Below, one piece after another: positions 880-59,429 of a stretch of 64,000 nucleotides of DNA. The translations under genes were made by a program, and so were the position numbers. Below the pieces are notes generated by a model. That model was not told the origin of the DNA and made no database searches. It was given only the letters and a program-made list of their open reading frames with translations. Each line of letters opens with the position of its first letter. The first letter of the stretch is position 1. The stretch lies in assembly GCA_044892525.1 (NCBI GenBank), contig CM097885.1, positions 434,001-498,000 on the forward strand. The letters run 5' to 3'. This DNA comes from Schmidtea polychroa. Lineage: Eukaryota.

Positions 880-934
<55 letters not shown>

Positions 935-2256: not shown

Positions 2257-2287
<31 letters not shown>

Positions 2288-2534: not shown

Positions 2535-2622
<88 letters not shown>

Positions 2623-12600: not shown

Positions 12601-12647
12601 GTCAATAACTTCCTCACCATCCGACATAGGGGACTCGATTGTGTCAT
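9620..12647 (-). mobile_element. NeSL/R5-like non-LTR retrotransposon family B copy 1, 3' portion (zinc fingers, Ulp1-like, RT with internal deletion near 10045, thumb)
   Basis: ORFs 11471-12079, 10162-11142 and 10047-10352 (SWRPISIMNT, GCAEHN), then HPSQKINAFKIFIHSRL..GGLGL. Continues at 24787 across the Polinton. Confidence 0.85.
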
Positions 12648-12949
12648 AGTAGGTACAAGTGCGCTGCATGACTCATCATTACCCCCCCGCCCCCCGCCCC
12701 CGGTGAGTCATAAATGACGTCATCCATGACTCATCGCGCATGACTCACCGGCGATGACTCATCGCACATGACTCATCAAGGGTGACTCATTTCAAATTTA
12801 AATTTCCAAAGGTCAAATAAGGTCAAACCTTCACCCAAGGGTATCATTAGAAAAGTATTTGAGAGGTCAGTTTGATGGTCATACCCTCGAAGGTGTATGG
12901 TGGGTCCTTAACCTTCAAATGGTCAAAAACCTTCGAATGTTTTCAAACC

Positions 12950-12998
<49 letters not shown>

Positions 12999-14320
12999 TT
13001 CGAAAGGTATATGAGAGGAAAGTTTGATGGTCATACCCTCGAAGGTGTATGGTGGGTCCTTAACCTTCAAAGGGTCAAAAACCTTCGAATTTTTTCAAAC
13101 TTTGTAATATATATATATCATTCGAAAGGTATTTGGGAGGTCTATCTAATGGTCATACCCTCGAATGTATATGGTGGGTCAATAACCTTCAAAGGATGTC
13201 CAAAATTAAATATTTTTCAAACCATATAATATATATATATATATATCATTCAAAAGGACTTTTGATGGTGAGTTCGAAGATCCAAGGGTCGAAGGGTCCA
13301 AGGTTCAAAAATTTTAAAACCTTATAATATACATATCAAACGAAAGGTATTTGAGATGTAAGTATCATGGTCATACTTTCAAAGGTTTATGAATGGTCCT
13401 TAACCTTGTAACCTTCAAAGGGTCCAAAACCTTTAAAAATTATACATATAGATATATACATGTCAAATAAAAGGTAATACAAAGGTGAGTATGATGGTCA
13501 TACCATCAAAGGTCATACCCTCCAAGGGTCCAAGGATCAAATTTTTTAAAACCTTATAATATACATATCAAACAAAAGGTAATTCAAAGGTGAGTTCGAA
13601 GGTCAAAGGGTCGAAGGTTCAAATTTTAGAAACCTTATAATATACATATCAAACAAAAGGTAATTCAAAGATGAGTATGATGGTCCAAGTTTGAAGGTCA
13701 AAGGATCCATGGTTTAAATTTTTCAAACCTTATAATATACATATCAAACAAACGGCAATACAAAAGTACTCATCGATGACTCATTTAATTTTTTTTGAAC
13801 AAAGACAATGACTCATCATTTTTAGAACAAAGACATATGTTTTCAGAACAAAGACAATGGCGCGCCCATGGGATTTATTATTTATTACTATCAATAGTAA
13901 TATTATTATTTATTATTATTATTTTCGAAGATATTTTCAAATTTATTATTAATATTATTATTATGATTATTTATCAAGGTCATTTAAACAAAACCATGAC
14001 TCATCCGCTGAGTCATCAAAGTCGTTCTATTTTTAGTAACAAAGACTACTATTTTTAGTAACACACAGACATCTATTTTTAGTAACATTTTTGATCCGAT
14101 CATTGATCCGATGACTCACCAAGGTTGTTGTATTTTTAGTAACAAAAACATCTATTTTTAGTAACGTTTTGGATCTATTTTTAGTAACATTTGTGAAGTA
14201 CATATGACTCATCATTTCTTAAACAAAGATATTATTATCATTATTATTATTTTCAAAGTTATTTTGAAAATTCTTATTATTACTATTATTATTCTTATTC
14301 TTCTTCTTCTTCTTCTTCTT

Positions 14321-14351
<31 letters not shown>

Positions 14352-14598
14352 TTTGCAAAGTTCTAATTATTATTTTATTTTAGAAGTTTCATTATTATTA
14401 TTTACTTAAATATTCATAAAACTTAATTTCTACGTCAATTTCATGATTTTCAACATTTTCATCATTTGCATGATTATTTTCAAATTTTCACGATTTTCAA
14501 CATTTTCAAATATTTTTCAAAGTATTATTTTCAAAGATTTATTTTCAAATTATTTTCAAAGATTTAATCAAAATTATTATTAATACTATTATTATTAA

Positions 14599-14683
<85 letters not shown>

Positions 14684-17505: not shown

Positions 17506-19943
17506 TTGTTAATTTTATCTCTGTGTTATTAAAATTATCGTTCGACTTTACTCTTCTTACCATTTTAGAATAAGATTTTTTATCAAAATTTGTGTTAATT
17601 TGACTGATTCAATTTGATGGAGTTATTGTTAATTCGTTTTATTATATATACTATGAGTTTATCCGACAAGATATTTTCTCCCTCTATGGGTACTGTTCAC
17701 AATTGGTACTGCTCGCAAGGGTACTGGTCGTAAAGGTACTGGTGTGTTTTAATGATTTTATTTAGGCAAATTTTTGGTTATTAATTAGCATTAAATTCAT
17801 TGGTAATTTTTAGAGTTAGCGGGATTTTACTAACATTATTACTAACCTTTTTGTGAATAATTGAAAGAATATTTAAAAATTTAAGGTTTTAGTGTTAATT
17901 CTAAGACAAATTTAATTAATTTCTTGATAATTTACTATATTTTATTGACTTGTTTTTAAATTTAATTTTAAATAAAAATTATTTTTAATGACAGTTAGGT
18001 TAATAATTAGAGTTTTTACAATAATCAAGTGATTATTATTTAATTTTTATGATGACTTTGTAATTATATTGACAAAATAATTCTTTCATATATTTTCTAC
18101 GAATATTGATGAACTTTTAAATATTGAAAATCTAAAGTTGAAACCAGCTAATTTTATCATGATGATATATTTGAAATCTACTTGAAAATTATTGTAAAAT
18201 ATACTGAAATTTGTGATTTTGAAAGATATAATTGCTATAATTGGCTGAATCGATGAAGAATTATGATCAATATATTTCATTTCTAGTTAGGTATTTGATG
18301 GTAAATGTGGTGAAATATTTGTAGAAAATATTGATTTTAGTGATTTTTTAGTGGCTCTTACTACATGAATTTAGATACTAAATTATTTCAATGGAAGGAT
18401 GTCTGTAACAATTAAATAAAATTCATATTTTGAAGAATTTTCTATGGATTTTAAGAGAATTGATATATTAAAGTCGGTTGGATTTAGTGAAGGTTCAGTT
18501 AAGATGGTAATATATGATTTTTAAAGGGGGTATTTAATGGGGTAGAAATATTTAGTGAGGGATCGGTTAAGGCGGAAATGTTTGAAATCTCTATTTAAAT
18601 CGACAATGTTTCTTATTGGTAAAATATCAAAGGGACATAGTCAGTATTTAGCTATGAATTAATAATCGTTCCTGTGAAATTATATCGTTTTATTAGGTTG
18701 TGATGAATGTTATGGCACAGTAATATTAGGTTTTAGAACCAGTTTTTATTAATTATCCACTGTTTTATTAAGTCGTTTAGGGTTAATGATCTATTTACTT
18801 GGTTTTGACAATGAAATATTTGAAATCTTTAGAATTAATTGGGATTGATATCAAAGGTTATTGCTTTAAATTATTTTATTTAAGAAGTTATTTTATTCAT
18901 TGTGGGGATATCTGTGACAAAACTTGAGAAATATTGACTTAAAAGTTGGAAATCTACAACAGCTAAAGAAAATTGATCTTTATTGAAAATATTTTATGAT
19001 TTTAATTAGATTTCTAGAAATTAAATCGGTTGAATATTAAGGGTAAAGGGAAGGAATATTGTTATCGGATGGATAAATCTTTCAATGATATTTTTCTAAA
19101 TTACCTTTGTTAAATATTATTTTAAATGACTAAAAAAGAGAAAATTAACCAATATTCATAAATTGATCGCACAAAATATCCCTGTTTTGGTAAAAGTTAC
19201 TCAAAATCCCTATTTAAAAATGTTAAGCATGTATAAGATATATTACACCCAATGATCATCTCATTAAATTTGAAAAGAATTGTAACCCTATATTTCTAAC
19301 TAATAAGCACCTTAATTGGTAAATTGATAACAAATGATCATGTTTCTATTATGACTCCTTTTGCCTCAAACAAAGATAGAAATTTACTCCAAATGATAAA
19401 GATTTTCTACCAAAATTATCAATGAATATATTAATAACCATGCATTTCTCACGAAGTTATATTAACTATTGTAATGAACATTAGATGAATAAATTACCTA
19501 TGAAATACTAAATATTCATATCTTACCTTTTGCTAAATTTTAAATGACTAAACATGACAACGTTAACCAATAAATTAGACGCTCGAAATGAGAATTCGGT
19601 AAGTTACATTCAAAATATTCAAATTATTCACGAATTTCTGATATCTATGATCATCCATTTCTCACTAAATTACCTAAGAATTTTTAACTAATATACATGT
19701 GCTTTAATTAATATACCCTTGCGACATGTTGAATGTAAGCAGTACCCTTACGACAAATACACATAAGGGAACAAAATATATTGTCGGATAAATTCAGACT
19801 TTATATAAAAACTTACAATATGCTATGGTTTTTATTGAGTAATTTGTTGTATATTGCATTGATACATCAAAATATCAGATAATATTTATAAATTAACTAA
19901 AAAATACACAAAAATACTATATTAACTAAGAATTCAGTTATGT
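17506..19943. other. Central spacer of element 1: decayed coding-like module bounded by convergent palindromic motifs; homologous (inverted) to ~61410-63521
   Basis: Colinear inverted similarity, e.g. ccagtttttattaattatccac (~18740) vs gtggataattaataaaaactgg (~62383). Confidence 0.8.
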
Positions 19944-22173
19944 TTCTAGTTAAATAATTGAGATAATTGGTATTACTATCAACTATATAAAAGAAATGTT
20001 ATGAATCCAAGAATATTTTAATTAAATGGTACAGCCAAAAACCATGGATTTCTAACTAAATTTTTAAATTTATCTGGAAATATATTTTACTTAAGAAATT
20101 GCTATATATTTAAAATAACCATGTACTATTTATCAAATTGCCTAAAAATTTGCTATATGGTATTGTTAAAAAAAAAATAATAAAATTAAAAATAATAATA
20201 TTATGTCAGGGCATGAAAAAATAATATAATTGTATGACTAATAAATTTGCAATACAAATGCATAATTAACAAAGACTTTGCAATAAATGGGCATGATTAA
20301 CAAAGACACTAGAAATATTATCTTTACATTTTGTCGAAGATGATTATAGCAGTAATATCAGAGGAAAATCAATGGACAGAAGAAAAGCATCATTTAGTCA
20401 TTATGATTTATAATAATTGTAAATATAATTGTATATATAATTGTAAATTTCAATATTTATAATAACCACTATATAAAAAAATTAATACAAATATTAAAAC
20501 AAAATGAATATGTTTTAATCAAAAAGTATTACAATAAAACAATAAATTTATAAAAACAAATTAAAACATTTATTTCCGAAAAAATAATAACCAATACATC
20601 CAGCATCTTCATGGTTCTTGCGAAGATCTTTTTCCATTTTGATGAACTCATGGTTATATTTCATTTTGAATAATCTTAAAATAATATTATAAATACCATT
20701 CCCTTCATCATATCATCAACATTTGGTAGTTGCGCCCAATATAATTAATTACCAAGCTGATTTCATATTATTCAATGTTTGAAAATTTCCTACATTATAG
20801 TACCGTCATTATGTATGTTAATAATTCATTTGACTTTGATATTGTATTTATTTGTATTGAGAACTTACATGTATATAGTATGATATTCATTAATCAGTAT
20901 TAAACAGGCTTGACAATTGCGAACATTCTTCTCGTGACACTTAGAACAAACAATTACGTGACCACACGGTAAATACAAAACCGAAACTTGATTTTCTTTA
21001 CAAATTGAACAAGTTAAATACCTTTTCTTAACATCGTTCAGTTTTCCGTTAGCTTATTTTCAATCAAGTCGGCTTTTGCTATCCATTCATAAATCAATCT
21101 ACTATATCCCGGTTTCAACCTTAAATACATACAACTCCAAAAGTATTCATTCAGTGAATCGTTGTTTACCACTGTTTTTTCTAAATACATTAAATAACTA
21201 GATAACTTCAAAATGCATTTATCATAATTAAATAAATCAATCAAATATTGAATAGAGGAATGTTTGAAAATCTTTAAAATATTTATGATTTGCTTATCAT
21301 TGTAAGTATCATGATTATTTATAAAATCTTCAACTGTGTTGTTAAAAAATTTCAATGAACGCTTATCTTCAGAATAGGTTGGACTTAATTTTTCCTTATT
21401 TCTAGTAGGACTTCCTTGCTATAAATGACATATATAAAAAATATTGACAAAATAATAAAGTTACCAAATGTGTTTTGTGATTTACATATTCAACAGTTTT
21501 ATTTGTAGAAATCATCAGTAATAAATAAATTTCTTAATAACTAAATTACTTTTGTTTTTACATTTATAAAAATTGAGATAGCCAATCAAATTAGAGTTTT
21601 CAAAATGTAGAAATTGTAACCATGGTTGAACCTTCAAATGTCTAAGTAACATCATATTGTATAACAATAATAATAAGCATGACTAGTACCCTTGCAACCT
21701 GTTGAGTGTGAGCAGTACCCATAGGGGGACAAAATATTTTGTCGGGTAGACTAGGAGTATATATAATAATAATAATAAAAATAATAATATACTTTGAAAT
21801 AAATAATAAGAAATTTGAAAATAATTTTGAAAATGATAATAATAATATTTTATAAATAAACTAAGAATTTTGAAGAAAATAATGATGAAAATATTGAAAA
21901 TCGTGAAAATTATGAAAATGTTAAAATCATGAAAATATAGAAAATGATGAAAATGTTGAAAATGATGAAGACGTTGAAAATTATGAAAATGTTCCTGAAA
22001 ATATTGAAAATGATGAAAATATTGAAAAGGATGAAAACGTTAAACATTATGAAAATGTTCCTGAAAATAATCATCAAATATTGAAAATCGTAAATTGATG
22101 CAGAAATTAAGTTTTATGAATATTTAAGTAAATAATAATAAAACATCGAAAATAAAATAATAAGAACTTTGCA

Positions 22174-22204
<31 letters not shown>

Positions 22205-22772
22205 TTGATAAAAAATTTGAAAATAATTTGAAAATAATTCTTTGAAAATAATACTTTGAAAAATATTCGATGAAAAGTTCCTGAAATAATCATGAAAATG
22301 TTGAAAATCGTGAAAATATTGAAAATGTAGAAAATTGTTAAAATTCATGCAAATGATGAAAATGCTGAAAATCATGTAATTGACGTAGAAATTAAGTTTT
22401 ATGAATATTTAAGTAAATAATAATAATGAAACTTCTAAATTAATATAATAATTAGAAGTTTGCAAATAATAATAAAAATAATAATAATAAAAAAAAAATA
22501 ATAATAATAATTCTTTGAAAATAATTCTTTGAAAATAATAATGAAAAAATAATAATCATGAAAATGTTGAAAATCGTGAAAATGTTGAAAATCGTGAAAA
22601 TATTGAAAATGATGAAAATGTTCAAAATTATGACAATGTTCCTGAAAATAATCATCAAATATTGAAAATCGTAAATTGATGCAGAAATTGTGTTTTATGA
22701 ATATTTAAGGAAATAATAATAAAACATCGAAAATAAAATAATAAGAACTTCGCAAATAATAATAATAATAAT

Positions 22773-22821
<49 letters not shown>

Positions 22822-23069
22822 TTAATAATAATAGTATTAATAATAATTTTGATTAAATCTTTGAAAATAATTTGAAAATAAATCTTTGAAAATAATACTT
22901 TGAAAAATATTTGAAAATGTTGAAAATCGTGAAAATTTTGAAAATAATCTTGCAAATGATGAAAATGTTGAAAATCATGAAATTGACGTAGAAATTAAGT
23001 TTTATGAATATTTAAGTAAATAATAATAATGAAACTTCTAAAATAAAATAATAATTAGAACTTTGCAAA

Positions 23070-23114
<45 letters not shown>

Positions 23115-24416
23115 GAATAAGAATAAGAATAATAATAGTAATAATAAGAATTTTCAAAATAACTTTGAAAATAATAATAATGATAATAATATCTTTGTTT
23201 AAGAAATGATGAGTCATATGTACTTCACAAATGTTACTAAAAATAGATCCAAAACGTTACTAAAAATAGATGTTTTTGTTACTAAAAATACAACAACCTT
23301 GGTGAGTCATCGGATCAATGATCGGATCAAAAATGTTACTAAAAATAGATGTCTGTGTGTTACTAAAAATAGTAGTCTTTGTTACTAAAAATAGAACGAC
23401 TTTGATGACTCAGCGGATGAGTCATGGTTTTGTTTAAATGACCTTGATAAATAATCATAATAATAATATTAATAATAAATTTGAAAATATCTTCGAAAAT
23501 AATAATAATAAATAATAATATTACTATTGATAGTAATAAATAATAAATCCCATGGGCGCGCCATTGTCTTTGTTCTGAAAACATATGTCTTTGTTCTAAA
23601 AATGATGAGTCATTGTCTTTGTTCAAAAAAAATTAAATGAGTCATCGATGAGTACTTTTGTATTGCCGTTTGTTTGATATGTATATTATAAGGTTTGAAA
23701 AATTTAAACCATGGATCCTTTGACCTTCAAACTTGGACCATCATACTCATCTTTGAATTACCTTTTGTTTGATATGTATATTATAAGGTTTCTAAAATTT
23801 GAACCTTCGACCCTTTGACCTTCGAACTCACCTTTGAATTACCTTTTGTTTGATATGTATATTATAAGGTTTTAAAAAATTTGATCCTTGGACCCTTGGA
23901 GGGTATGACCTTTGATGGTATGACCATCATACTCATCTTTGAATTACCTTTTATTTGACATGTATATATCTATATGTATAATTTTTAAAGGTTTTGGACC
24001 CTTTGAAGGTTTGAAGGTTAAGGACCATTCATAAACCTTTGAAAGTATGACCATGATACTTACATCTCAAATACCTTTCGTTTGATATGTATATTATAAG
24101 GTTTTAAAATTTTTGAACCTTGGACCCTTCGACCCTTGGACCTTCGAACTCACCATCAAAAGTCCTTTTGAATGATATATATATATTATATGGTTTGAAA
24201 AATATTTAATTTTGGACATCCTTTGAAGGTTATTGACCCACCATATACATTCGAGGGTATGACCATTAGATAGACCTCCCAAATACCTTTCGAATGATAT
24301 ATATATATTACAAAGTTTGAAAAAATTCGAAGGTTTTTGACCCTTTGAAGGTTAAGGACCCACCATACACCTTCGAGGGTATGACCATCAAACTTTCCTC
24401 TCATATACCTTTCGAA

Positions 24417-24487
<71 letters not shown>

Positions 24488-24786
24488 GGTTTGAAAACAT
24501 TCGGAGGTTTTTGACCCTTTGAAGGTTAAGGACCCACCATACACATTCGAGGGTATGACCATCAAACTGACCTCTCAAATACCTTTCTAATGATACCCTT
24601 GGGTGAAGGTTTGACCTTATTTGACCTTTGGAAATTTAAATTTGAAATGAGTCACCCTTGATGAGTCATGTGCGATGAGTCATCGCCGGTGAGTCATGCG
24701 CGATGAGTCATGGATGACGTCATTTATGACTCACTGGGGGCGGGGGGTGGGGTAATGATGAGTCATGCAGCGCACTTGTACCTACT
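19944..24786 (-). repeat. Right inverted arm of element 1
   Basis: Mirror ORFs in the track (21038-21355, 23363-23626). Differs from the left arm by a few substitutions and microsatellite lengths. Confidence 0.95.
20865..21355 (-). pseudogene. RING-finger gene, copy 3 (inverted arm)
   Basis: Reverse complement of 16096-16586. Confidence 0.8.
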
Positions 24787-27067
24787 TGTCATCAAAGTAA
24801 CAGCTATAGTGGGATGTGTCGATACTGATCTTCGAGTAGGAGGAGTCACTGTCAGGGTCATAAGATAGTTCAGGTAAACTAGAGCATGATGGAGTATCTT
24901 CTGGGGTGTAGGGAGAGGAGGTATTATTCATGTTATTAGATTTAATATATCTAACCTTTTTAAGGAGTTTTTCATTGGGTCTGATAACCTTAGGATAGGA
25001 AAGATTCGGAATAGGTTTGGAGAAATGTGGCCTACTACATGTGATTTGATTACGGTAGATTGGATTTGGCATTTTAGTATCAGGGAGATGATAGACTATC
25101 GATAGTTGCAGGACTACAGGTAAAATGTTTTTTAGGAAGAGGGTTAGGGTTGGTGCTGGGTTTACTGGGGTGCTTTGGTCTGCTATTATTTTCCTTAGAT
25201 ACTAGGGATTTACTTGTGGTATAATCAGGGTCCACGGTGTCCATAAGAGAGGCATATCTATTATTTGCCATATTATTGATATTAGTTTAAGCTGGGAGAA
25301 TGGGTGAAATCCCGGATGGTGCAATGCCTGCAGGTGATGTAGACCTCTCAGTAATAATGATATTGGTTTCATTTGAGTCAAGACAATTTGTATTATTTTT
25401 GGGTAAGTTTTCTGTATCTACATCAACTGCAGGGGTCGCCTTCTCAAATAATACTGAGGTCAATTGCCGGTAATTAATATATAGTATATAGAACAAATTT
25501 CTAATAATAAAGGAGTTTACTTTTTTATTGTTATTTTTTAATTGGGTATGGATATCTTTAAAGAGGTATTTATTAAGGTTTATTAAAATGGGATTATAGT
25601 GATTAATGAAATACCTATTATTGTGGTAGGGTATAAGCCTCAGATCAAAAGGTGGTTTGTCGCTATTGGACGGTTCAAGGATATCTATCAGTTTACAGTA
25701 ATTGCTATTAAGGTCTTTGAAGAAAGAGATATAGGTAGTTTTTAGCATTTGTGGGTTTGAGGAGTTCATATGGAGAAATTGTTTTTTAATTTCCCTAATG
25801 AAATTGGTTCCGATTTCATTAATGTTATTAAGGTATTCGGGGTCAGAGTTCTTATGAGAGGCTGTAGGGTAATCATTAGTATTAAAATTTTCACTGAAGG
25901 ATACAGACTTATGATGGGCGAGTCGGCCGTAGGCCGGCGAGCTGCGTGTTTTCTCGTGTTCCTTCGAGATAAAGTGTTGAAAAATGAGTGATATTTAAAC
26001 AACGAGACATCTTTGTTTAATATCGATAATTTATTTAAATTAATAAAATTGGATATATTTATAATAATAACATTAACTAGCTCACTAGAAAATCCATTAA
26101 AAGGGACTTCTGTAGAGCTTTTAAAATCTAAAATTAATTTTTTAATAATATATTTAATTTTATTTTTAAAAAATTTATCATATTTATTGTTATTTTGGTA
26201 GACAGAAGTATATTTGTCATTAGATTTATTATTCAAATTATAATTAACATTATTGGATTCATAGTTATCATTATAAGTATATGTATAATTATTATTAATC
26301 GGGTTTTCATTATTTAAGTTAAATTCAAAGCTATTTAAATTACAATTAGAATTAATTAATCTATAGTCATTATCATAAATTAATTTGCTATTCTTATTAT
26401 TTAGATTAGAGATATTGCCACTTAAATTACAATTAGGGTTATTTAATATATAGTTACAATTTAAATTATAATCATCATTAGTTAAATTACTATTCTCATT
26501 AATTAAATTAAAATCGTTGCAATTTACTTTACAATTTGAATAATTCAAGTTATAATCGCTATAGAAATTTTGATTATAATTACCTTTATTTCTATTATTT
26601 ATAATGTGAATCCTACGAGCTGGGCAGAAGGATTTCCACGAGGCATTGAATAGGTCTTTGGGTGTTTCGTCTGTAGTCCTAGCTTCTTTATTTCCATTAT
26701 TAAGAGTGTGAATCCTACGATCAGGGCATAAGGATTTCCACGAGGCTTTAGATAGGTCTTTGGATGTTTCGTCCGTAGTCTCAGCTTCACTGTAAAGAGG
26801 TCTGGCAGGATGGGCATTACTGTTCAGGTCTGAGGAAGCATTCGCATATTTGTTCGAGATCTTCCTAGCAGGACAAAGTCTGCTGTTCATCATTTCACGA
26901 GTGTTCGGTGTCATGGTTTTAGGAGCGTTTCTTCCAAGTCCGTCAGGAGGAGCTGTAGTAGGATTATGGATTCCAGTTCTAGAAGGGAAATTAGATTTTG
27001 TAACATAAGGGTTTTTCTTATCAGTATCTCCAGGATTGGAGCTTCTTCCATCCATAGCTGCTTCATT

Positions 27068-27149
27068 GGTGTAGACGGCCGATTTCTGCCCAGTGCTATT
27101 AATGATATATAGCAGTATTTCTGCTAAGCACTGGGTAACGGCGGGTAAC
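27068..27149 (+). other. Degenerate 28S rRNA H68-H69-like segment (antisense to the retroelement)
   Basis: ggtgtagacg..gatttctgcccagtgct...aagcactgggtaacggcgggtaac resembles canonical LSU GGTGTTGACG..GATTTCTGCCCAGTGCT...AAGCGCGGGTAAACGGCGGGAGTAAC (recalled sequence). Confidence 0.8.
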
Positions 27150-27199
27150 AAGTAATTGAAAGGATTTAGATTTTGAAGATGCATTATAAAAATTTTTTC

Positions 27200-27256
27200 T
27201 GCTATGAATGTTATATAGGAGTGATTCTCTTAAGCACTGGGAAACGGCTGGAGTAA
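27200..27256 (+). other. Second, partial 28S-like segment
   Basis: tgctatgaatgt...attc...aagcactgggaaacggctggagtaa. Confidence 0.7.
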
Positions 27257-27317
27257 TCTTGTGACAATTTAAATAATTAGTGTACATTAAAGAAAAATTT
27301 TTGAGGTAAAAAGGGGT

Positions 27318-27680
27318 GCAGTTAAGGCTAGAGATTATCAAGATTAGTATTTGATGAGGCACTGCTCGATAGTTGGACATCATCGCAGTCTTCATCATCA
27401 AGATCACAGGTATTAGTTTTATTGGTAGGAGGGTTTAAGTAAAAAGGAGTATTATTATCCATAGTGTCCGACGAAGCTTTAAGGACTGGAGTGATAGGAG
27501 TTGTAGCTGGACTCCTTCTCCTGGTAGTATTCCTCACTATATCTGCGTATGTTTTTGATGTAGCTTCCTTTGCATTCATTCTGTTTATTTCGTCTAAGTA
27601 CCTAGGATATAGATAAATATTGGAACTGGGGCATAATTTATTCATAATCCGAAGGCTTCAATGGTTATACGTCAGCTGCT
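27318..27680 (-). mobile_element. Short internally deleted retroelement fragment (family A-type 5' ORF1 piece joined to 3'UTR word agccttaactgc)
   Basis: ORF MNKLCPSSNIYLYPRYLDEIN.. is near-identical to ~35050-35397 and ~36810-37060. Confidence 0.7.
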
Positions 27681-28423
27681 TCTGAAAGAGTAATTCCCGT
27701 CATCGGGGCTCGTATTAGCTGTATAGTTTATTAATCTTTCCGGCATTATTCTATTCGGTATCCTTTGGGCAATCTATTTCGTGCTCGCGTGTATTGTATG
27801 GTTTATTGGCATCAGTGTTTTCATCTTTCCGGCATTATTCTATTCGGCATCCTTTGGGCAATCTATTCGGGGCTCGCATGTATTGTAAAGTTTCCTCCAC
27901 TTTTAATCTTTCCGTCATATTTCATCGTATTATATGTAAGTTTATCATCATTAAAGACATAACGCCATCATTTATTAGTGGAAAGTCAAGACAAGTCACA
28001 TAAAAACAGTAAAAATTTTAAACTAGAAAAGCCATCACGATGCAGAAGTAAAAAATAAAAATTAAAAAAACCATCACAAGGCACAGTTAATAAAAGGTTA
28101 GTAAAAAGCCATCACAAGGCACAGTAAGTAATATGGGTAAAAAGACCACATGGTTATCACAAACATAACAGTATAAATGAGTACACAAGTAATCGTAGTA
28201 ATAATTATAGTAATTATAGTACTTAGTAAATAGTAATAATTATAGTAATTATATTAGTTATAGTAATAATAGTACCATCCCGAGGTATAATAAGAATAGG
28301 ATCATTATGCTAAAAACAAATATAGTAGTAGATGTTAGTAGATATAGTCGGTATCAAATTACAGTATATATAGATAATTATATACAATAGGATATTATAC
28401 AGGCAAATAGCAAAAAATTCATT

Positions 28424-30177
28424 CTATATTGTGTTAAGTATATAGTCCATGTAAATTTTATAGCTAGCTATTACTGCTGTTTTTATGCATTTTTTTGCAA
28501 GTGCGTGTATTTCCTTATCAGTGAGGCTTATCTGGGTAAGGTGTTTGTCGTTTTCAGTGTCCCACGTGCCCAGAGTTCCTACTATTAAAGCGGATAAGGT
28601 CGTTTTGGTTTTATTAATTTTACCGGTCTCTAGGGCAAGGCTCATATACTTATCACGGTTATTATTGCGTGCGAGTTCAAAATTCTCAAGCTGGTCATAA
28701 GGGACTTTTATATCTAATAAATGAATTTTATAATTAGGTCAGGTCTAAGTGTGGTGTTTACTCCTGGTGGCGCTCTCTCTACATCAACCTCGAATTGTTT
28801 GGATATTAATTATTCTAGTGTTGTATCCAATACATGATTGTGTTTATTTCTCCTTGCATTTTGGGTGTGTGTGCAGTGATTAAAGATATGTGCATGTGTT
28901 TCCCAGTCTATCTTACATAGTCTACATAATATATTTTGATTTTCCTTGTGTCTATTTATACTATAATTTAGACTGAGACGGGCTTTAATTATTGGTTGTC
29001 AGTTAATGTATGCTCTTTGATAAGGTATGCTGCTAAGTTATTATTTCCTATTGTTTTTGCAATATGTCCCTGATGAACCATATTGTGCCATTGCTCAGCA
29101 TACCATTTGCTAGTAATTGTGTGTAGTGCAGATGATGTAGAGCTCATATTTTCGTTATTTATATAATTTATTTCGTTATTATAATTAATTTCAAGATTAA
29201 AAAGTCCCTTAATTATTATTATTTTACAGGTAATGTTAAATTTTTCGCGTATTCTTTTGGCGGAATCCCTAAATTTAGAAAAAATAGTAATGGTGCCACT
29301 AATATCACCAGTAATGTCAGTGTTTAACCAATCAAGTGCTTTATTAATATTAATATCTTTGTTGTGATGTCTAAACTTAACAGTTTCAATTAATTCATGT
29401 ACTATAAAATCTCTCATTTTAGTATCTGTGGAGTTTAATATTTTAATTAAGTGTGTAATGCTTTGTATTAAATATTCGTCGATAGTTGGTGTGATTCCTA
29501 AGCCTCCTCGAGAGCAACTCGCATAAATGAAATCATTATTCATATTCTGGTGTATGTCTTGTAGTGCGTTCTTAATCAGTCTTTTAATTTTCTGGTCAAA
29601 GCCAAGTTGTTTATCGAGTTGTTGAACTACTCGAGTTCTATTGCAATCCAGCACCATATGGTTTATTTTACATGTGCGAAACGGAAAAATAAATCGCGAG
29701 TGTATAAAAGTCTTATATGGATGGAGTTGTTGTGCTGGATGTAAGTTTGAGGTGAATATCTTTTCAGATTCGGCCAATGCCTTATTTAATATGTCATCTA
29801 TGCTATGCTTACTCTTTTCACCGAATCCTACTCCTAAGTATCTATATATATTATCTTTATCAATTATGGGTATTATTTCATTATAGATCGTTAGTGGTAT
29901 GTCAGAATGATTTTTATGGATCTGGAAGTAACCGCATTTACTAGGTCGAAATTTTAATTTGGTCTTATAAGTCAGTTTAGTTATATGTTCTAATATCATC
30001 CTAATGTTTTCTCTTGACTCAGATATTAGAACAATGTCGTCAGCATACGCCAATATGCTGACATTGTATTGTTTATATATTAGTGGGAATTTATCAAGTA
30101 TGTCTCTAAGAATAAAGTCTATTGCTAGGCAAAATAATGTCATTGACATAGGGCAACCCTGCTTAACTCCGTTATAT
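28424..30177 (-). pseudogene. RT C-terminal half plus CCHC/RLE endonuclease, disrupted
   Basis: LAYADDIVLI, CRLCKIDWETHAHIFNHC, RPDL, DIKVPYD, IVGTLGTW. Confidence 0.9.
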
Positions 30178-32013
30178 GGGATCCGGATAAAACACCGAAA
30201 CAAAAAACTCGAAATTCAAACTTCGAAAACAAAAACACCGAAAAATATAATTTCGAAATGCAAAAACATAAAAAATAAAATATCGAAAACATAAACATCG
30301 AAAGCATTTTTATTATTTAAAAAAAAAATTGTATGTAATTGATGTAACAATTTTAACATTTGTTGACTTTTAAAACTATTAGGCCGCTTGAAGTTCTAAA
30401 TTATGGGCTAAACCTCTTAAATAATCTAAAGTGTTTCGAGTTCCATATGACTCTACTATAGACTTGATTCTTCTGGCAGTTTCGATATAAATTCTTTTTG
30501 ATGGTGGTGGATTAATTCCTGACGTTAATTGTTCCAATTTCAATCGAGTCAGGCCTTCTTCTTTCTTTAAAATTTCAAGAAAACGCCAGAAATTTGGGTT
30601 ACTTGATGCCATCAATGAACTAAAAGATCGATGCCATCCTTCAATCGAGTTATTTGTTTTAGGAAGATCATCGATTGATGCTTCGTAACAATTCCAAAGC
30701 GATATCGGAACTCTTGGTGATCTTCTTCCTGTTGCAGATCTTGTTGGTCTTCCAATCCACTGATCCTCGATATAATCGATAAGTGGACAAAGCAATTGTT
30801 CGTTTTCTCTGAAGAAATCAGAGTCTAAAAGTACATTGAAACACTCAATGACATCTTCTTCTGGCACAAAAGCTAAAGCTGCAAGTTGTCGCAAATATAA
30901 AGAAAAATCAGGATCCTGTATATCCTTATATTTGTCGCTAATTGGACTGTTTCTTTGTATTTCTCTCCATATACATTGAGAAAAATGGAAGAAACAACCA
31001 CGAATTCTTGTATCGGGGAAGCAATCTTTAATTGAATTAATAATTGCTTGTTCAAAATCCGATAACACAGATACTGGTGATAGAGCAGGCTTTATTTGCT
31101 TTAATTGGCGAAAAACTTTAGTATAAGTTTCTTGTCTTTTGTTAGGCAAAAGAGCATAAACCAAAGGTATCACTGTTTTATCGATAATACAATGTACCGT
31201 AAACATCTGAAAAAATAAACTTGGAGCATTTTTAAATGTTCCATCAACGTATAAATGCGGAGATGATACTAATGTATCAATTAATCGACTTGTGCTGAAC
31301 ATCACAATTCTATCTGCGCCATCATTTGAATCGTAGATTACAAAATCATCTCCAATTGCAGTTTTTCTTAAGTTTTCGGGTATAAATAAATCCGAAAGTG
31401 ATGTCGGCGAAGGCAATATCCCTGATGCTTGATTTCTTTGTCTTCTGATAGTTCTTTTGATCGAATCTATCTTCGGCAACTTGCTACAAACAGCTTGAGA
31501 CAATGTTGACGTTGCCGCTGCAATAATTTGAAGCGGTGTTTCGGTGGAAGTTTTTGAACTTTCTTTTATTTCAGAATAAAGCTCTTTAGCTTTAATAACG
31601 GCAACTTTTGGAACATGATTATGTTCTCCTATTTCTTTTTCCACTTGATTATCAACAGTGTGGCATCTTCCTTTGCACTTAAATGTCAAATATTCCACAC
31701 ATTTCCAATAAGTTTTTTCGTTATGTTGCCTATCTTTTTGATAAAGAAAACTATTATATAAAAGTTGATTAACACCTTTTTGACTTTTAATAAATTTAAT
31801 CTCCATTTTTATAATTGGAATCAATATTTAGCTAATTTAATAATTTAACTATGAAGAAATGAAAGGAAACGGAAACAATTTAAAGGGACTTTTTATTAAT
31901 TTTTCGATATTTTGTTTTCGATATTTTTGTTTTCGAAATTTTTTCTATTCGATATTTTATTTTCGGTGTTTTTGTTTTAGTTTTTTTAATTTTCGGTATT
32001 TTGTCCGGGATTC
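30178..32013 (-). mobile_element. Mutator-like (MULE) DNA transposon with ~125-bp imperfect TIRs built of cgaaa repeats, 9-bp TSD ccgttatat
   Basis: ccgttatat(30169-77)|GGGATCCGGATAAAACACCGAAA...TTTCGGTATTTTGTCCGGGATTC|ccgttatat(32014-22). Excision restores RT EIEIYNGVKQG. Confidence 0.93.
30379..31806 (-). CDS. FLYWCH zinc finger plus MULE (DDE) transposase, uninterrupted ORF (ATG at 31806; the track extends to 31824)
   Basis: YWKCVEY..CKGRC..EHNH; YVDGTFK; LSDFEQAIINSIK..FP..IRGCFFHFSQC; KTNNSIEGWH. Confidence 0.93.
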   Translation of the reverse strand: MEIKFIKSQKGVNQLLYNSFLYQKDRQHNEKTYWKCVEYLTFKCKGRCHTVDNQVEKEIGEHNHVPKVAVIKAKELYSEIKESSKTSTETPLQIIAAATSTLSQAVCSKLPKIDSIKRTIRRQRNQASGILPSPTSLSDLFIPENLRKTAIGDDFVIYDSNDGADRIVMFSTSRLIDTLVSSPHLYVDGTFKNAPSLFFQMFTVHCIIDKTVIPLVYALLPNKRQETYTKVFRQLKQIKPALSPVSVLSDFEQAIINSIKDCFPDTRIRGCFFHFSQCIWREIQRNSPISDKYKDIQDPDFSLYLRQLAALAFVPEEDVIECFNVLLDSDFFRENEQLLCPLIDYIEDQWIGRPTRSATGRRSPRVPISLWNCYEASIDDLPKTNNSIEGWHRSFSSLMASSNPNFWRFLEILKKEEGLTRLKLEQLTSGINPPPSKRIYIETARRIKSIVESYGTRNTLDYLRGLAHNLELQAA

Positions 32014-34497
32014 CCGTTATATATTTCTATTTCATTTGTAAGTTGCCCTTCACATTCAAAGTATGTTTTGCAATTATGATATAGGTCCTTAAACATATTA
32101 AGTGTATCATTATTAATGCCTAGTTCTGTTAGTGTTTGCCATATAAGTTGATGCGGCACACTTCCGAATGCATCAGCGAGGTCTAACCAGAATATGTTAA
32201 TGTCGCCATTATTGCGAATTGCTCTCTCTTTAATAAGTGGTTAGTATTACATATTTTGTTTTTGTGCTTTGTGCTAATATGTTTATCAATCTCGTCTTGT
32301 GTGGATCTTACTGTAAGTTTATTTATGCATGGTTTCCTAAGTGATTTATTATTGCAGTTTATGGTACCTTCCTCATTTATTGTTAAGGTATGTTCCTTAA
32401 GCTTAATGTTAATCATTTCTCTAGATAAAGGTACCGCTAAGTCTTTATGAGTTTCATTAATGTGTTCAGTGATAGTGTTCAATAAAAAGTTACATTTAAT
32501 GTTTGTGTTACGTTGTGAACATAAAACGCATTGGAAGGTGTCATATTTGTTGATTTCGGTTGTGTGTACTTCTAATCTATTTTGTTAGTTGGTCTTCGAA
32601 TTTAGTTGCACCTATCTTACCTTTAGAATTGGGGTTGTAACATATTAGGTAACCATCACCTCTTAGTTTAAAAATTGGTTCCCTTAGTGTGCGTAGAGCA
32701 AATTTATTGGGTTTTAGGACTGAGGTGTTTATTTTTTCAATTTCGTTTGATTCTAGTATTGGTTGGAGATCAGTTTTATTTATAATGGGGCTAGCATTAG
32801 TACACGTAGTGTTGATGTCATCTTTTGGGGTGGGGATTAATATGTTATTATGTGTTATTGTGGTTGTTTTTCCTAGTAGATCAAGTTTATTTACGATTTT
32901 AAAAGCTTCGAATGTTTGCGTATTCATGTATGATGGTTTAGTGTCATGGATATTAGAGTCGTTACTTGAAGTGTTCGATTGTGTGGGTGTGTTTTCAAAA
33001 AGATCTATACTCGAGTCTATTTGTGGGTGAATATTGCTCTTACTGTAGATCATAGGGCTGGGGTTTACAGAGTTCGTAAGCGGGCTATATGATATAGTTT
33101 CAGTCGTTGTTTGTGGTAGCATTTTAGTATTTATATTTCCATCAGAAAGTTCAGAGGATTCAGAGTCAGAGATTTGGATATCGTCAATGTCTGGCACCAC
33201 AGTATTCGTTGGGTGTTCAGTTACGTCGTCATTAATTATATCAGATAGTATAGGAGATTCAGAGTCAGAAGTGTTTTGATTAATTATGTTAGTTTTAGAG
33301 TTATCATTAAGGTCGAGTTCATTATTTGCATCAGGAAGTATGTCAGATTCAGAGTCAGAGGGGTTACTGCAGTCAAGGTCTACATTACGGCTATGAAGGA
33401 TATCTTTGTCAATATCAGGAGTTTCACGAATGTCAAGATTAGTAATATTAATTTCAGGGTCAGATTCATCGTTTTTATCACTGTCAGAGGGTATACCAGG
33501 TATTTGGTTGGAAAACTTATAGCAGGCAGTATCTTTATTCACGTCATCTTGATCATCAATGTCAATTAGGTTTGTAGTTAGGTCATTTGGGGCTGCAATT
33601 TTCCCTAACTGGTTCAAGGGTATTTTATTAATATGGTCATATGTCCATGGAAGATTCAGAAAAATGTGGCCTTTTGGATGTATTTATGTTGCGTTTTGGT
33701 AATATATTTTTTGAGATAGTGCTTATTTGGGTTGAGATTTGAGAGCTTAGGTTTAGTGGTCAAAGTTGTAGTTGATTTATTTTTGTAGATGAGGTGAGTG
33801 GGTATTTCTATTTAGGGGTATTTCTATTTAAGTAGTCATATTTAAACAAACTAATTATTTTTAAAAAAATGGAATCGCCATTTTGTTTAATGAAATTTAA
33901 TAAATCGTTTTTTAAATTATTTCGAAATATATTTTTTATTTCTGGTTGGTATTTTTCTTGATTAATTTTTATAATTTCATCTATCCTATCTATTAAAAAA
34001 TAATCATAATTTTCAATTTGTTTGGGGTCTAGGTCATAGATCTCTTTATTATTCAAAACATTGTTATTGTTATTTTTATTATAATTACTAATAATGATAT
34101 CTTCACTACACTTATTATAATCGCAATTCTGATCATAATTACCGTTATTTATCTTTTTCGAGGAAGGGCATATTGTTGTATATTTTTTTTCATAGTATCG
34201 AATCGGGTTAACTTTGTTTTTAATGGCTTTTTCGTCATTTAATCTTTCATTAATCGGGTTCCGAGAGGGGCATTCCGTCTCATTGTCGGTGTGGTGTTTT
34301 GGTTTACCGTAATCAGGAGTCGGTTTCTTTTTATCAGTAATATATCTGCAAATACCATTATTTATTTTCTTAAAATCATTAAATAATTGGTTATCGAATG
34401 GGGCTCTGATTTTTTCAAATCTTTCGCAGATAGTCCTGATATTCCGATCTCCATTCGAATCGTTGATCTCATAATTAGATCCAAATAAAAAGCCAGT

Positions 34498-34562
34498 TTT
34501 CTGCCCAGTGCTATGAATGTTATCTAGAAGTGATTCTTCTAAGCACTGGGAAACGGCGGGAG
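34498..34562 (+). other. 28S rRNA H68-H69-like segment in the leader of family C copy 1
   Basis: Ungapped 65-nt hand alignment, 50/65 identical, to recalled canonical LSU TTTCTGCCCAGTGCTCTGAATGT...GGGTAAACGGCGGGAG. Confidence 0.85.
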
Positions 34563-34666
34563 CATTAGTACAAAATTCAAGTTTTTTAAATTGCATAAAC
34601 ATTTTCATTGAATTCTGAGGAGGCATTCCAAACAGATCGGGACAGATTTCGCAGTTATAATAATTG

Positions 34667-35451
34667 TTAGGAGAGGCAGTTAAGGCTTCTGTCTGATTAG
34701 TTTATATGCAATTATGAGCACTAAAATTTTTCGTTTAAATCTATCCTTAATAGGATAGAGTTTATAATAAATAGGGTTTATGAAAGAATGGTCAACGTCA
34801 TCGGTTACAGAGTTTCTTTGTAAAGAAGCCTCTATGATATCATGAGAGTAGTTATGGCTTACTGAGTCTAAGGAGATGTGAGAGTTAGTTGTTTCGACGA
34901 TAGAAGTATCGTTTAATGGAGAAGGTTTGAAGGATATGGGATTTATCATAGAGTCATTATCCATATTAGAGTGTGAAAGGTGGTTAGAGTATTTTTTTGA
35001 GATGTTGGACTCATCTTTAATGGGAGTTGAAGTAATATTTGGGAGATAGAGATTATCAAGATAAGTATTTGATGAGGCACTGCTCGATAGTTGGACATCA
35101 TCGCAGTCTTCATCATCAAGATCACAGGAATTAGTTTTATTGGTAGGATGGTTTAAGTAAAAAGGAGTATTATTATCCATAGTGTCCGACGAAGCTTTAA
35201 GGACTGGAGTGATAGGAGTTGTAGCTGGACTCCTTCTCGTGGTAGTATTCCTCACTATATCTGCGTATGTTTTTGATGTAGCTTCTTTTGCATTCATTCT
35301 GTTTATTTCGTCTAAGTACCTAGGATATAGATAAATATTGGAACTGGGGCATAATTTATTCATAATCCGAAGGCTTCAATGGTTATACGTCAGCTGCCTC
35401 CTGGCTTCTCTGATAAAGTTCTCTTTTTCTCCTTGGAATTGCCACCCATTT
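34667..35451 (-). mobile_element. Short internally deleted family A-type element (5' ORF1 piece fused to a 3'UTR piece)
   Basis: ORF 34680-35363 is homologous to 8500-8890 and 39400-39600. 34667-34728 matches 3'UTR 40077-40138. Confidence 0.75.
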
Positions 35452-37345
35452 ATCAAAATTTTATTTAATAAAAGCCTGCTCCTAAGAGACAGGTTAGTCC
35501 TTTTAACGGGACGAGTTTCGGCGCAATGCCAGAAGCTTCCGCATTCATTGTTTTAAATCATCTGTCATCCAAGCCTTGTACTGGTTTAGGGATCAAGGCT
35601 GATTTCTTTTCATCGTATAGTTCAGCGTCCATTTTATTGATTTTGTTCAGGATCAGTAGTAGGTATCGGCGTTATCATTTTTTCATTGTTGTATTTATGT
35701 TATGGGCTCTAAAAAAAGGGTTAAAGATTCGGAGTAAGAAGACTCCATATTTGGTAGCGGTACAATATAATTGTAATAAGGATTGGACGGATTAGGGAAA
35801 GGAGGTTTAAAGGAATAGGTGGTTATAATAAATATTTTAACAACTAAAAAGATATTTATCAGTTAGGCGGAGCCCTTACAAGGACTCCTACATTGACCCA
35901 CTGATAATACACTTATTTGCGATCACCTTCCTCTTCCTAGCGTCTCTTGGTTTAATTTTGGCTAATATTTCGGAGATGCATTTTTTTTGCATGTTCCACA
36001 AAAGCAGGTATGCATTCAAGAGTAATTTGAGCAGTTAAAGTATTAGGATATTCGCAGTTAAAATTGAGGATTCCATCCGTAAGTGCGTTAATATTGGCCT
36101 TAAGTTCAGAGAGAATTACGGTTTTAGTCTCTTCAGGTAGATTAAGATCTGGATTTTTTAATTCAAATAATATCCTGAGGTTGGTATTGACTTCGTCTTT
36201 GATATATAGTGTTATAGAAAGGTTTAGGATACTATTGCATATTCTTTCCACGAGTTTATCAGCGTCCAATTCGCAGTGAAAATCGGAATGTGGGACGTTT
36301 ACAGCTTTCTCACTAGTCGGGTCTCCATTTTGAGTTTGTTCAGGATCGATTTTATCAGCGTCCATCTCGCAGTGAAGGTCGGAATGTGTGGGGTTTATAG
36401 ATTCTTCACTAGTCGGATTTTCATTTTGATTTTCTTCATGATCAGTATTACCTAGAACTGTTATCGGTGGTTGTGCATAATTATAGGCGAAGTTCGGAAG
36501 TTTTTTGTAATTATTGGCGTGTTTACGAGGAGCAAATCTTTCTTTAAATTTTAAAATTAGAAAAAGTCTTTGATGATATATAGGTTAGTAGGAATGTTTT
36601 TTATAATTTTATGGATATCTATAAAAAAACTTTTACTTAAGTTGTAGAGTTGACAATGGTTAGTAGGTTTGTAAAGTTTGGTATTATTAGGAAAAGAAGG
36701 TATGGGTTCGCTAGAAGGGTTAGCGCTTTGACATTTTCTGGGAGTCGGCCGAAGGCCGATGAGCTGTGATTGGATATTTCGGTTTCAGGGCTTACATTTG
36801 CTGTTTAGTGTTGGTTTAAGTAAAAAGGAGTATTATTATCCATAGTGTCCGACGAAGCTTTAAGGACTGGAGTGATAGGAGTTGTAGCTGGACTCCTTCT
36901 CCTGGTAGTATTCCTCACTATATCTGCGTATGTTTTTGATGTAGCTTCTTTTGCATTCATTCTGTTTATTTCGTCTAAGTACCTAATGATATAGATAAAT
37001 ATTGGAACTGGGGCATAATTTATTCATAATCCGAAGGCTTCAATGGTTATACGTCAGCTGCCTCCTGGCTTCTCTGATAAAATTCTCTTTTTCTCCTTGG
37101 AATTGCCGCCTATTTCTGCGCAGTGCTAGGAATCTTATATTGGAGTGATTCTCCGAAGCACTGGTAAACGGCGGGAGTTATATTGTAACGATTGTTTTTG
37201 GAATCTTGCATGTAATATTTTTACGGAAAAGAGGTGCTAGGAAGTGATTCTCCTAAGCGCTGGGAAACGGCGGGAGTAATCTGGTAATAAATTGAGTTTC
37301 TGAATAACATTAAAGAAATATTTTCACGGTTAAAAAGGGGACCTC
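35452..37345 (-). mobile_element. Chimeric non-autonomous retroelement: double 28S-like leader, A-type 5' piece, B-type ORF1 piece, 3'UTR and structured 3' end; no RT
   Basis: 28S-like motifs at 37112-37178 and 37234-37279. 36810-37110 matches 35150-35450. cggagtaagaagactc is shared with 40151. The 3' end is shared with 43601-43690. Confidence 0.7.
37112..37279 (+). other. Tandem pair of 28S-like segments (full 37112-37178, partial 37234-37279)
   Basis: atttctgcgcagtgct...aagcactggtaaacggcgggagt and aagcgctgggaaacggcgggagtaa. Confidence 0.8.
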
Positions 37346-44643: not shown

Positions 44644-45588
44644 TTAGTTATCAATTAATGTGTTTAAAATGTGGTCCATATAGATATTGTAGCTCGCTGT
44701 GATCGCTGTTATAATGCATTTCCTAGCTAATATGTTAATTTCCCTATCAGTCAATCCTATATCTCTTAAGGGTTTATCATTGTTGATATCCCAGGTTCCT
44801 AAAGTTCCTACAACAAGTGCATATAGTGTAGTTTTATTTGCAGTGCCAGTTTCAATAGCCAAATTTCTATATTTCTCAAAATTGTTATCTCTAGCGTTAT
44901 TAAAATTTTCTATTGTGTCATACGGTACCTTAATGTCAAGTAGGTGTATTTTTTTGTTTCTATTTGAGGTTATAATTAAGTCAGGTCTTAGTGTAGTTAT
45001 TGTTCCTGGTGGTGCTCTTTCTGTGTCGACTTTAAAGTTTTTGGAAGTTAGATATTTATGCGTTATTTCTAATACTCTATTGTGCTTATTTCTCCTAGCA
45101 TTTTGTGTTTTGGTGCAGTGGTTGAAAATATGTGCCTGCGTTTCCCAGTCTTTGCTGCATAATCTGCAGAGTATGTTTTGGTTCTCTTTGTGCCTATTTA
45201 TTGTATAATTAAGACTGAGCATGTTATTGCGTGCTTTAATTATGAAGTAATATTGATTGTCGGTAAGAACAGTTGATTTTATTGGGTATGCAGATAAGTT
45301 ATTGTTTCCTATTGTTTTTGATATGTGTCCCTGGTTGATCATGTCATACCATTTTTCAGCATACCATCTACTTGTTATATTATGTAATGTTGAGGATGTG
45401 TCTTCTATGTTATTCTTATCTATATAATTAATCTCATTGTTGTATTTTATTTCTAGGTTAAAAAAGCCTTTAATAAGTATTATTTTGCATTGAATATTGA
45501 ATTTTTCGCGGATTCTCTTATATGATTCCCTACAAGATTTACCACTTATGTCCCCCCTTACAGTCTGCATTAAGCCAGTCGAGGGCAT
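44644..45588 (-). pseudogene. CCHC zinc knuckle plus restriction-like (PD..D-x-K) endonuclease domain, frameshifted from RT
   Basis: CRLCSKDWETQAHIFNHC, RNKHNRV, LRPDLII, LLDIKVPYD, KYRNL, VVGTLGTW. Confidence 0.92.

Positions 45589-58385: not shown

Positions 58386-58469
<84 letters not shown>

Positions 58470-58739: not shown

Positions 58740-58799
<60 letters not shown>

Positions 58800-58801
<2 letters not shown>

Positions 58802-59381: not shown

Positions 59382-59429
<48 letters not shown>

Follow-up and report, generated by a model that had tools for sequence, protein, structure and literature searches.

R5 of the planarian Girardia tigrina, reportedly described by Burke, Singh and Eickbush in 2003, is said to be a 28S-specific element that resides in a minority family of 28S genes and belongs to the same clade as LIN24_SM and LIN26_SM of Schmidtea mediterranea. 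These two families and LIN9_SM target the 28S rRNA gene and cluster with R5, LIN24_SM and LIN26_SM being placed in the NeSL clade (Kojima & Jurka 2015, PMC4640811). According to S6 Fig of that paper, the 3' ends of LIN24_SM and LIN26_SM have poly(T) joined to ACRTTGYGTCAAAGCC, marking antisense insertions into 28S at ..GGGCAGAAATC|ACRTTG, and the uninserted reference (antisense 28S) reads ..AGCACTGGGCAGAAATC|ACGTTG... Here we analyzed a 64-kb stretch of the Schmidtea polychroa genome (GCA_044892525.1, contig CM097885.1, positions 434,001 to 498,000; hereafter, the window), in which retrotransposons of this kind carry a 71-nucleotide (nt) 28S-like motif at their 5' ends. We regard it as probable that this motif is a segment of a variant 28S type that has been kept at the nucleotide level and is still used as an insertion target by the machinery of the clade.

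The window elements and their relatives resemble LIN24_SM and LIN26_SM in the 28S bond used (..GGGCAGAAATC|ACRTTGYGTCAAAGCC), the antisense orientation, the poly(T) tail and a AAAATAAAATTT-type 3' end, and the published 28S reference is the variant type found here (PMC4640811). That paper already documents where the planarian families insert, in which orientation and with what tail; S6 Fig gives 3' boundaries only and describes no 5' 28S module.

A second comparison is with R2, whose RNAs keep 9–36 nt of upstream 28S and whose 5' junctions show 22–24-bp 28S duplications (Eickbush, Burke & Eickbush 2013, PMC3774820). As in the planarian families, a site-specific element encoding a restriction-like endonuclease (RLE) takes upstream target sequence along at its 5' end, and in R2 this sequence is proposed to anneal to the target in second-strand synthesis. 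However, the R2 piece has sense orientation and is derived from a co-transcript with rRNA that is cleaved by a ribozyme like that of hepatitis delta virus (HDV), whereas the planarian piece lies antisense in the interior of the element, measures 71 nt, follows a leader that contains a start codon, is part of an open reading frame (ORF), and is kept in dispersed families. The rRNA co-transcript and 5' HDV-like ribozyme of R2-type carry-over were not found: the motif is antisense to rRNA, and Rfam scans of the window and four loci matched no ribozyme family and no large subunit (LSU) rRNA. In fish, R2 families have 28S-derived sequence in the 3' untranslated region (UTR) and their insertion is accompanied by replacement of >100 bp of 28S (Kojima, Seto & Fujiwara 2016, PMC5035012). 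They too are site-specific elements with an internal copy of the rDNA (ribosomal DNA) beside their own site, but the copy is at the 3' end and sense, and the families stay in rDNA. Within the excerpts of these papers, we found no account of dispersed families in which an antisense target module of 71 nt is fixed within the 5' end and ORF1, nor of conservation of such a module at the nucleotide level or of insertions into it, a point on which the R5 paper and the Repbase entries may bear.

The motif and its relation to host 28S

A first-pass annotation of the window had described five related LSU-like motifs at the 5' ends of three different element bodies. All five are present where it placed them and are mutually alignable, with 27 invariant columns and a mean column identity of 68%. 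The host 28S was located with Rfam LSU_rRNA_eukarya on the 781-Mb assembly (four identical matches, 3017.9 bits), and L031:1501-5209 was taken as reference (L and C numbers are our handles for loci and contigs). BLASTN of the entire window against this 28S returned five matches at E ≤ 1, exactly the five motifs and none other, all of them plus/plus and within 28S nt 2479–2548 (Table 1). The annotation's hand count for the copy at 34498 (50/65) was reproduced exactly by BLASTN. A profile built from three motif copies recovers the true 28S at E 1.6e-12. With cmscan, the check that the annotation had named, no LSU match was obtained in the window at the gathering score or at E ≤ 10, a ~70-nt piece being below the reporting reach of the LSU model.

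The full motif is equivalent to 28S nt 2479–2549, a stem-loop in a region that we take to be H68/H69. It ends 17 nt before TAGCCAAATGCC, the R2 site, as identified by an R2-type 3' junction within an rDNA unit. The motif is 28S-sense on the + strand, and every ORF around the motifs is on the − strand, as are the element bodies; the term antisense used in the annotation therefore holds relative to the elements.

The carriers were characterized from full copies of one family (L035–L037), which are ~7.6 kb long with an ORF1 of ~800 amino acids and an ORF2. In L036, ORF2 matched RVT_1 at 3.2e-27 as well as zf-RVT, and no ORF matched Exo_endo_phos. The best PDB relatives of ORF2 are R2 proteins (2.9e-49, versus 1e-18 for L1), and its C-terminus (CRQC..H..C, KPDL..D.KV..K..) aligns to the CCHC and PD..D..K endonuclease region of R2 at 1.6e-12. 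The element 3' ends read ..AATAAAA(T)TTGA(T)n, and in the 7.6-kb family ..AATAAAACTTGA is followed by 15–21 T. On domain content, the elements are R2-supergroup, RLE-type non-long terminal repeat retrotransposons with a reverse transcriptase (RT), a restriction-like endonuclease and a poly(T) tail, and with no match to an apurinic/apyrimidinic endonuclease. As in the R5/LIN group, relatives of the window elements are inserted antisense in 28S, at GAAATC|ACRTYG, and have a poly(T) 3' tail, while the window copies lie outside rDNA.

Homology among genomic copies stops 50–70 nt past the motif (for element 1, it runs from the left and ends at ~27199), which bears out the proposed linkage to element 5' ends and places the motif inside the start of ORF1, 50–70 nt from the end of the element. 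At least three different families carry it. In BLASTP, the ORF1s of the 27068 and 34498 elements align only over the motif peptide, and the leaders and downstream sequences of the three window families do not align to one another, in agreement with the three bodies of the annotation. The motif was also said to lie within an ORF (PAV[S/T]QCL), and it is in frame in ORF1 of the 27081 and 34496 copies. The analyses of motif copies below use 24 distinct copies, taken from the best-scoring matches of two queries among ~800 first-look candidates genome-wide. In 18 of them, the motif has an in-frame ATG upstream of it, at a distance of 30–39 nt or, in one copy, 66 nt, and no stop codon interrupts the frame through the motif. 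A recognizable leader precedes the motif in nearly all of one set of 20 loci and in the loci of a survey of 5' flanks.

Two candidate readings of the sequence around the leader were rejected. The sequence ..TCATATCTC, considered as a target preference in the 5' flank, proved to be the element's own variable first ~10 nt. The leader was also considered as diverged 28S beyond nt 2549, but 23/24 leaders had z ≤ 2.3 against shuffles; only L102, which truly continues into 28S, reached z 4.6.

Insertion at the motif edge in rDNA and in other elements

The bond used by LIN24_SM and LIN26_SM is exactly the left edge of the motif (28S 2478/2479), so that by position the motif is the stretch of 28S that, read in element orientation, adjoins the insertion nick on its 5' side. 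There are 15 poly(T)|28S junctions at this bond in the genome, with at least four different 3' UTR types and tails of 10–65 T. One of them (L044) is in the main rDNA array and the remaining ones are in the variant 28S type. Contigs C396 and C235 have variant units with a seamless 5.3-kb element; there, at least 170 nt of genuine variant 28S run up to ..GGGCAGAAATC, the element starts with AATGAGTT.., and (T)n|ACATCGTG follows 5.0–5.4 kb after the start. Seamless 5' junctions with genuine variant 28S upstream were seen at L104, L105 and L110, the last of which is another family at the same bond. For uninserted variant 28S, patterns copied from the published figure gave no match in the genome; uninserted variant sites exist, with 1-nt indels.

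The variant 28S is closer than the main 28S to all 24/24 full motif copies (45–56/58 versus 36–45/58 comparable positions), and on this comparison the source of the motif is the variant type, not the main type. The derived states A50, G55 and the absence of the extra T are common to the element copies and absent from both rDNA types. These shared states argue for one old capture over constant re-copying from rDNA, and favor a single old capture that was then followed by constraint. The copies at L044, L106 and L102 look like younger, variant-like captures.

These results also bear on the pairing with ribosomal H68/H69 that the first-pass annotation had suggested for the leader RNA. In such a role, an antisense regulator would pair with 28S H68/H69 or with rRNA fragments and affect translation or silencing. 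Element-sense RNA is indeed complementary to the main 28S at 47–56/71 positions, including a 16-nt perfect block, but the motif follows the variant rDNA type rather than the main 28S, and it folds on itself. The exact agreement of the motif edge with a site of DNA insertion is explained by reading of a DNA target and not by pairing. We therefore consider a regulatory antisense role extremely unlikely.

In the window, the motif edge is occupied twice. The annotation had described two leaders as a full motif, a partial motif and a tail ending aaaaagggg. The layout itself was seen both times, the partial motifs starting at 27200, as annotated, and at 37235 rather than 37234, and the tails ending at 27316 and 37340; it is not a designed leader. 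Both partial motifs start at TGCTA (28S 2492), and in front of each, on the + strand, stands the neighboring element's 5' end, complete or nearly so. The tail belongs to a further family, whose 5' end it forms (CCCCTTTTTACC.. on the − strand) and of which L094 and L097–L100 are intact copies. Judged from these junctions, one element has inserted into the motif of another, and 13 nt (CTGGGCAGAAATC) were lost. An identical 5' junction (..ATTCAATAGCA|) with an identical 13-nt deletion was found in real variant rDNA, in a 110-nt truncated copy (L045) whose insert recurs in L074 and L081.

Further nested insertions were found elsewhere in the genome. A search for poly(T) joined to the post-motif sequence of individual families gave four exact matches (27068 family, one; L020 family, one; L028 family, two), and zero matches with reversed control patterns. 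All four, at loci L066, L067, L068 and L069, are canonical element 3' ends joined at the bond GAAATC|GGC.. in three families, and the 3' end at L068 is identical over 63 nt to that of the rDNA-resident family. Besides those in the window (27199/27200 and 37234/37235), 5' junctions at the motif edge were seen at L084, L095 and L070. One 4.6-kb insertion is bounded by L009 and L066, and a 1.8-kb insertion by L070 and L068. The independent nested events at the motif edge number eight, including the two window cases. Motif copies occupy ~7e-5 of the genome, so chance cannot yield eight insertions at this edge, and the annotation's idea of a portable landing pad is supported by them. In addition, 28S fragments of 60–85 nt are pads in other, mostly subtelomeric, repeats, with different elements inserted at the same bond (L102, L107–L109). 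A shorter pattern, the 13-mer AACATTCATAGCA followed by non-C, had 36 genome matches; 20 of the 33 that were not window duplicates were inspected and 0/20 were motif-related; in an AT-rich genome of 781 Mb, a pattern of this length is too short to be informative.

What follows the bond varies from case to case (ACATTG in 28S; GGCCGT, GGCTGA and GGCAGA in elements), from which we infer that the determinants of the first nick lie on the motif side. These loci are in effect a natural swap experiment, in which the same bond is nicked with the 71 nt placed before either 28S or unrelated element sequence, and the comparison would place the recognition determinants on one side of the nick. Site-specific R2-like elements are under development for targeted gene insertion, for which target reading and exit from rDNA are open questions.

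The motif could also be kept as a homology arm only, with the 28S-sense end of the first cDNA (complementary DNA) strand annealing to the upstream rDNA target and priming precise second-strand synthesis, and with use as a landing pad as a by-product. This agrees with the leaderless seamless 5' junctions of rDNA-resident full-length copies (L104, L105, L110), with the presence of the same family elsewhere with a leader and a 28S piece (L044, L106), and with the model published for R2 RNAs that retain upstream 28S (PMC3774820). However, seamless joins are equally predicted by plain precise insertion of a motif-less element, the abundant motif-bearing families are mostly outside rDNA, where a 28S arm has no annealing partner, and the nested events have joins with a 13-nt deletion or filler, or blunt ones that retain the leader in full, none of them being a seamless homologous join. 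A function as homology arm alone is thus somewhat unlikely.

Several rDNA-related loci show additional structures. In a main-array unit at L044 (G000:C3:144554400-144558500), 28S nt 2479–2565 are replaced by a composite of an antisense poly(T) element at 2478/2479 and an 88%-identical fragment of 28S nt 1921–2420, with a 3' end joined exactly at the R2 site. At G000:C238:27856-27890, in variant 28S (..AATAGCACTG|TGTCAAAGCC..), ~16 nt spanning the bond are missing, which may be a repair footprint. A truncated rDNA-site insertion at L083 (G000:C861:16187-16497) adjoins (CCTAAC)n telomere-like repeats. Variant-28S pads are located at C1:17 kb, C1:269-270.6 Mb, C2:188.4-189.3 Mb and C3:0.3-0.65 Mb, and many pads and motif copies are near the ends of large contigs.

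Conservation, coding and folding of the motif

Across the 276 pairs of the 24 copies, the mean identity was 86% in the motif, compared with 62% in the 60-nt leader and 57% in the 42 nt that follow the motif; shuffled leaders gave 56%. Motif identity was above that of both flanks in 274 of the 276 pairs, and in the 90 pairs with both flanks below 60% the motif was still 84% identical. The motif neither decays at the rate of its flanks nor lacks a fixed link to another feature, as a neutral rDNA fragment would, and a leader precedes it in nearly all loci. The annotation had called these maintained sequences, and the identities are in line with that.

A passive relic would be a 5'-transduced, functionless rDNA flank that seems conserved through the youth of the families or through 5'-end exchange by template switching. 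Propagated target-derived duplications are known at R2 5' junctions (PMC3774820), and 28S fragments are also pads in unrelated subtelomeric repeats (L102, L107–L109). An origin of this kind is improbable, since in the same pairs the flanks are at shuffle level (57–62% versus 56%) and the motif at 84–86%, nearly every pair has its highest identity in the motif, the inner stem has compensatory changes, and an open frame with an ATG at a fixed distance is retained in 18/24 copies.

The open frame could indicate that the motif is kept for an N-terminal ORF1 peptide (PAV[ST]QCL..STGQK). It lies in frame behind an ATG and is free of stop codons in 18/24 distinct copies, and its peptide is all that aligns between two otherwise unrelated ORF1s. 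Entropy by codon position was 0.20/0.35/0.23, however: second positions vary most and third positions are about as fixed as first ones. Third positions that are not free are unlike constraint by a protein product. Moreover, the amino acids encoded by the hairpin differ freely (A/E/G/R, I/L/S) with base pairing kept, and the rDNA-resident family begins after the motif. Taken together, a protein-coding constraint appears highly improbable.

The motif is predicted to fold into a two-stem hairpin, with z of −3.7 to −4.4 in element sense and −2.9 to −4.4 in 28S sense, compared to −2.5 for the authentic 28S piece; on this structure, 96.4% of cells pair. The covariation that had been noted for the hairpin was found in the inner stem, at pair 33–43 (GC 9, CG 7, AU 6, other 2 in the 24 copies), and not in CAGTGCT/AGCACTG of the outer stem, which is near-invariant and gives no covariation evidence. 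The variant 28S has a homologous helix with an A.A mismatch at pair 33–43.

The first 3–7 nt after the motif are GC-rich in most families (GGCCG, GGCGGC, CGGTGGG; window 27076–27080 and 37104–37110) and complementary to the CGGCGGG end of the motif. In folds, a closing helix of these bases with CGGCGGG joins the whole motif into one domain, and the true 28S is without it. In a fixed register, this helix is not uniform across families, with 4/4 paired in only 5/24 copies and 3/4 in 8.

Our preferred explanation, that the motif is a maintained segment of variant 28S still serving as insertion target, has further parts. The 28S piece would first have become attached to the 5' end of an ancestral element living in rDNA, through either a transcript that began in the upstream target or 5'-junction formation. 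New copies join at exactly the homologous bond whatever sequence follows, and all determinants of the first nick would be contained in the 71 nt. The motif would most likely be kept through binding by the element's own protein, to the DNA target and/or to the 5' end of cDNA or RNA during integration.

Several observations weigh against this explanation. In motif-bearing families, the 5' flanks of around 20 independent full-length insertions show no relation to one another or to the motif; with 5' flanks mostly outside motif and rDNA sites, carrying a pad does not make the families site-specific. Insertion at the motif edge severs the leader and start codon of the carrier from its ORF1, a cost rather than a benefit. 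On the structural side, the outer 9-bp stem is almost invariant and hence silent on covariation, the covariation amounts to one strongly varying pair with probably two compensated events on the tree, real but thin, and the hairpin, judged from the homologous helix, is partly inherited from the rRNA of the variant 28S. A single event, multiplied in an array, may underlie both of the seamless junctions L104 and L105. No 28S origin could be traced for the leader, and either capture route may apply. DNA copies behind a shared leader suggest that the motif may be present in element RNA. The 24 copies are also a best-scoring selection from a much larger set of candidates.

A stronger version is put forward tentatively. 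The 71-nt mimic may be a selected, structured cis-element that alone recruits the endonuclease and RT of the clade, and the lineage may have left rDNA carrying its own target, seeding new pads with each insertion. If true, target recognition by this RLE clade would need sequence on only one side of the nick, and the motif would be a self-propagating safe harbor that accounts for nested copies, tandem arrays and clusters of subtelomeric 28S-fragment pads. With the target travelling with the element, this would offer a concrete way for a strictly rDNA-specific lineage to become dispersed and reach high copy number. For annotation, the motif accounts for ~800 rRNA-like matches in the planarian genome that are neither rRNA genes nor ordinary pseudogenes.

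Feature positions and neighboring repeats

The motif matches and the retrotransposon parts around them are listed in Table 1.

Table 1 Motif matches to host 28S and features of the motif-bearing elements, with positions in the window.
Feature	Position	Strand	Details
Motif match	27081-27145	plus/plus	BLASTN 73.8% of 65, E 1e-4
Motif match	27232-27256	plus/plus	BLASTN 84% of 25, E 0.7
Motif match	34498-34562	plus/plus	BLASTN 50/65, E 2e-7
Motif match	37112-37178	plus/plus	BLASTN 74.6% of 67, E 9e-6
Motif match	37255-37279	plus/plus	BLASTN 92% of 25, E 0.001
Element 1, 5' 2.4 kb	24787..27199	-	7.6-kb family; full copies L035-L037
Full motif, element 1	27081..27151	-	28S nt 2479-2549; about residues 11-33 of ORF1 (..PAVTQCLAEILLYIINSTGQKS..)
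Element 1 5' leader	27152..27199	-	ORF1 ATG 27184-27182; first ~5-10 nt of family 5' end absent relative to sister copies
Front of a different element (insertion target)	27200..27316	-	5' end CCCCTTTTTACC..; leader and motif nt 2549-2492, cut after ..CATAGCA, 13 motif nt lost
Full motif, second family	34496..34566	-	In frame in ORF 33808-34701 (..APAVSQCLEESLLDNIHSTGQKT..); leader to ~34605; relatives L084-L086, L091
Full motif, third family	37111..37181	-	Stop codon directly after motif in this copy
Complete 5' leader, third-family element	37182..37234	-	CCTCTTTTCCGTAAAAATATT..ATG..
Second targeted element front	37235..37340	-	Leader and partial motif, cut after ..TAGCA

At 24787, a ~13-kb block made up of other repeats breaks element 1, which probably resumes at 11459–9613. 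Three copies of a ~5–6-kb repeat with internal tandem repeats (99.6% direct, 98% inverted) are present at 1–5847, 12071–17910 and 19944–24786, and one pair of these copies interrupts element 1 at 24787. A 3-nt-periodic simple repeat at 2508–2640, 14572–14744, 22712–22848, 58321–58810 and 59383–59450 is up to 95–98% identical to the rDNA-spacer repeat just after 28S (L031:5853-6029).

Between the retrotransposon copies, a 482-amino acid ORF on the − strand (30379–31827) encodes a FLYWCH zinc finger (6.8e-15) and a MULE transposase (1.1e-17), corresponding to the gene of a Mutator-like DNA transposon. A separate RT fragment is located at 28989–30215 on the − strand (RVT_1, 7.7e-16), and 28427–30175 is 70% identical to 44656–46422, 16 kb apart.

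Elsewhere in the assembly, the motif occurs as an inverted duplication with two overlapping arms at L088 and L093. Head-to-tail arrays of a motif-bearing element with a 6916-bp period and an integrase-like ORF in the unit were found at G000:C2:97324974-97348634 (L028–L030, L039, L043) and at L014/L015.

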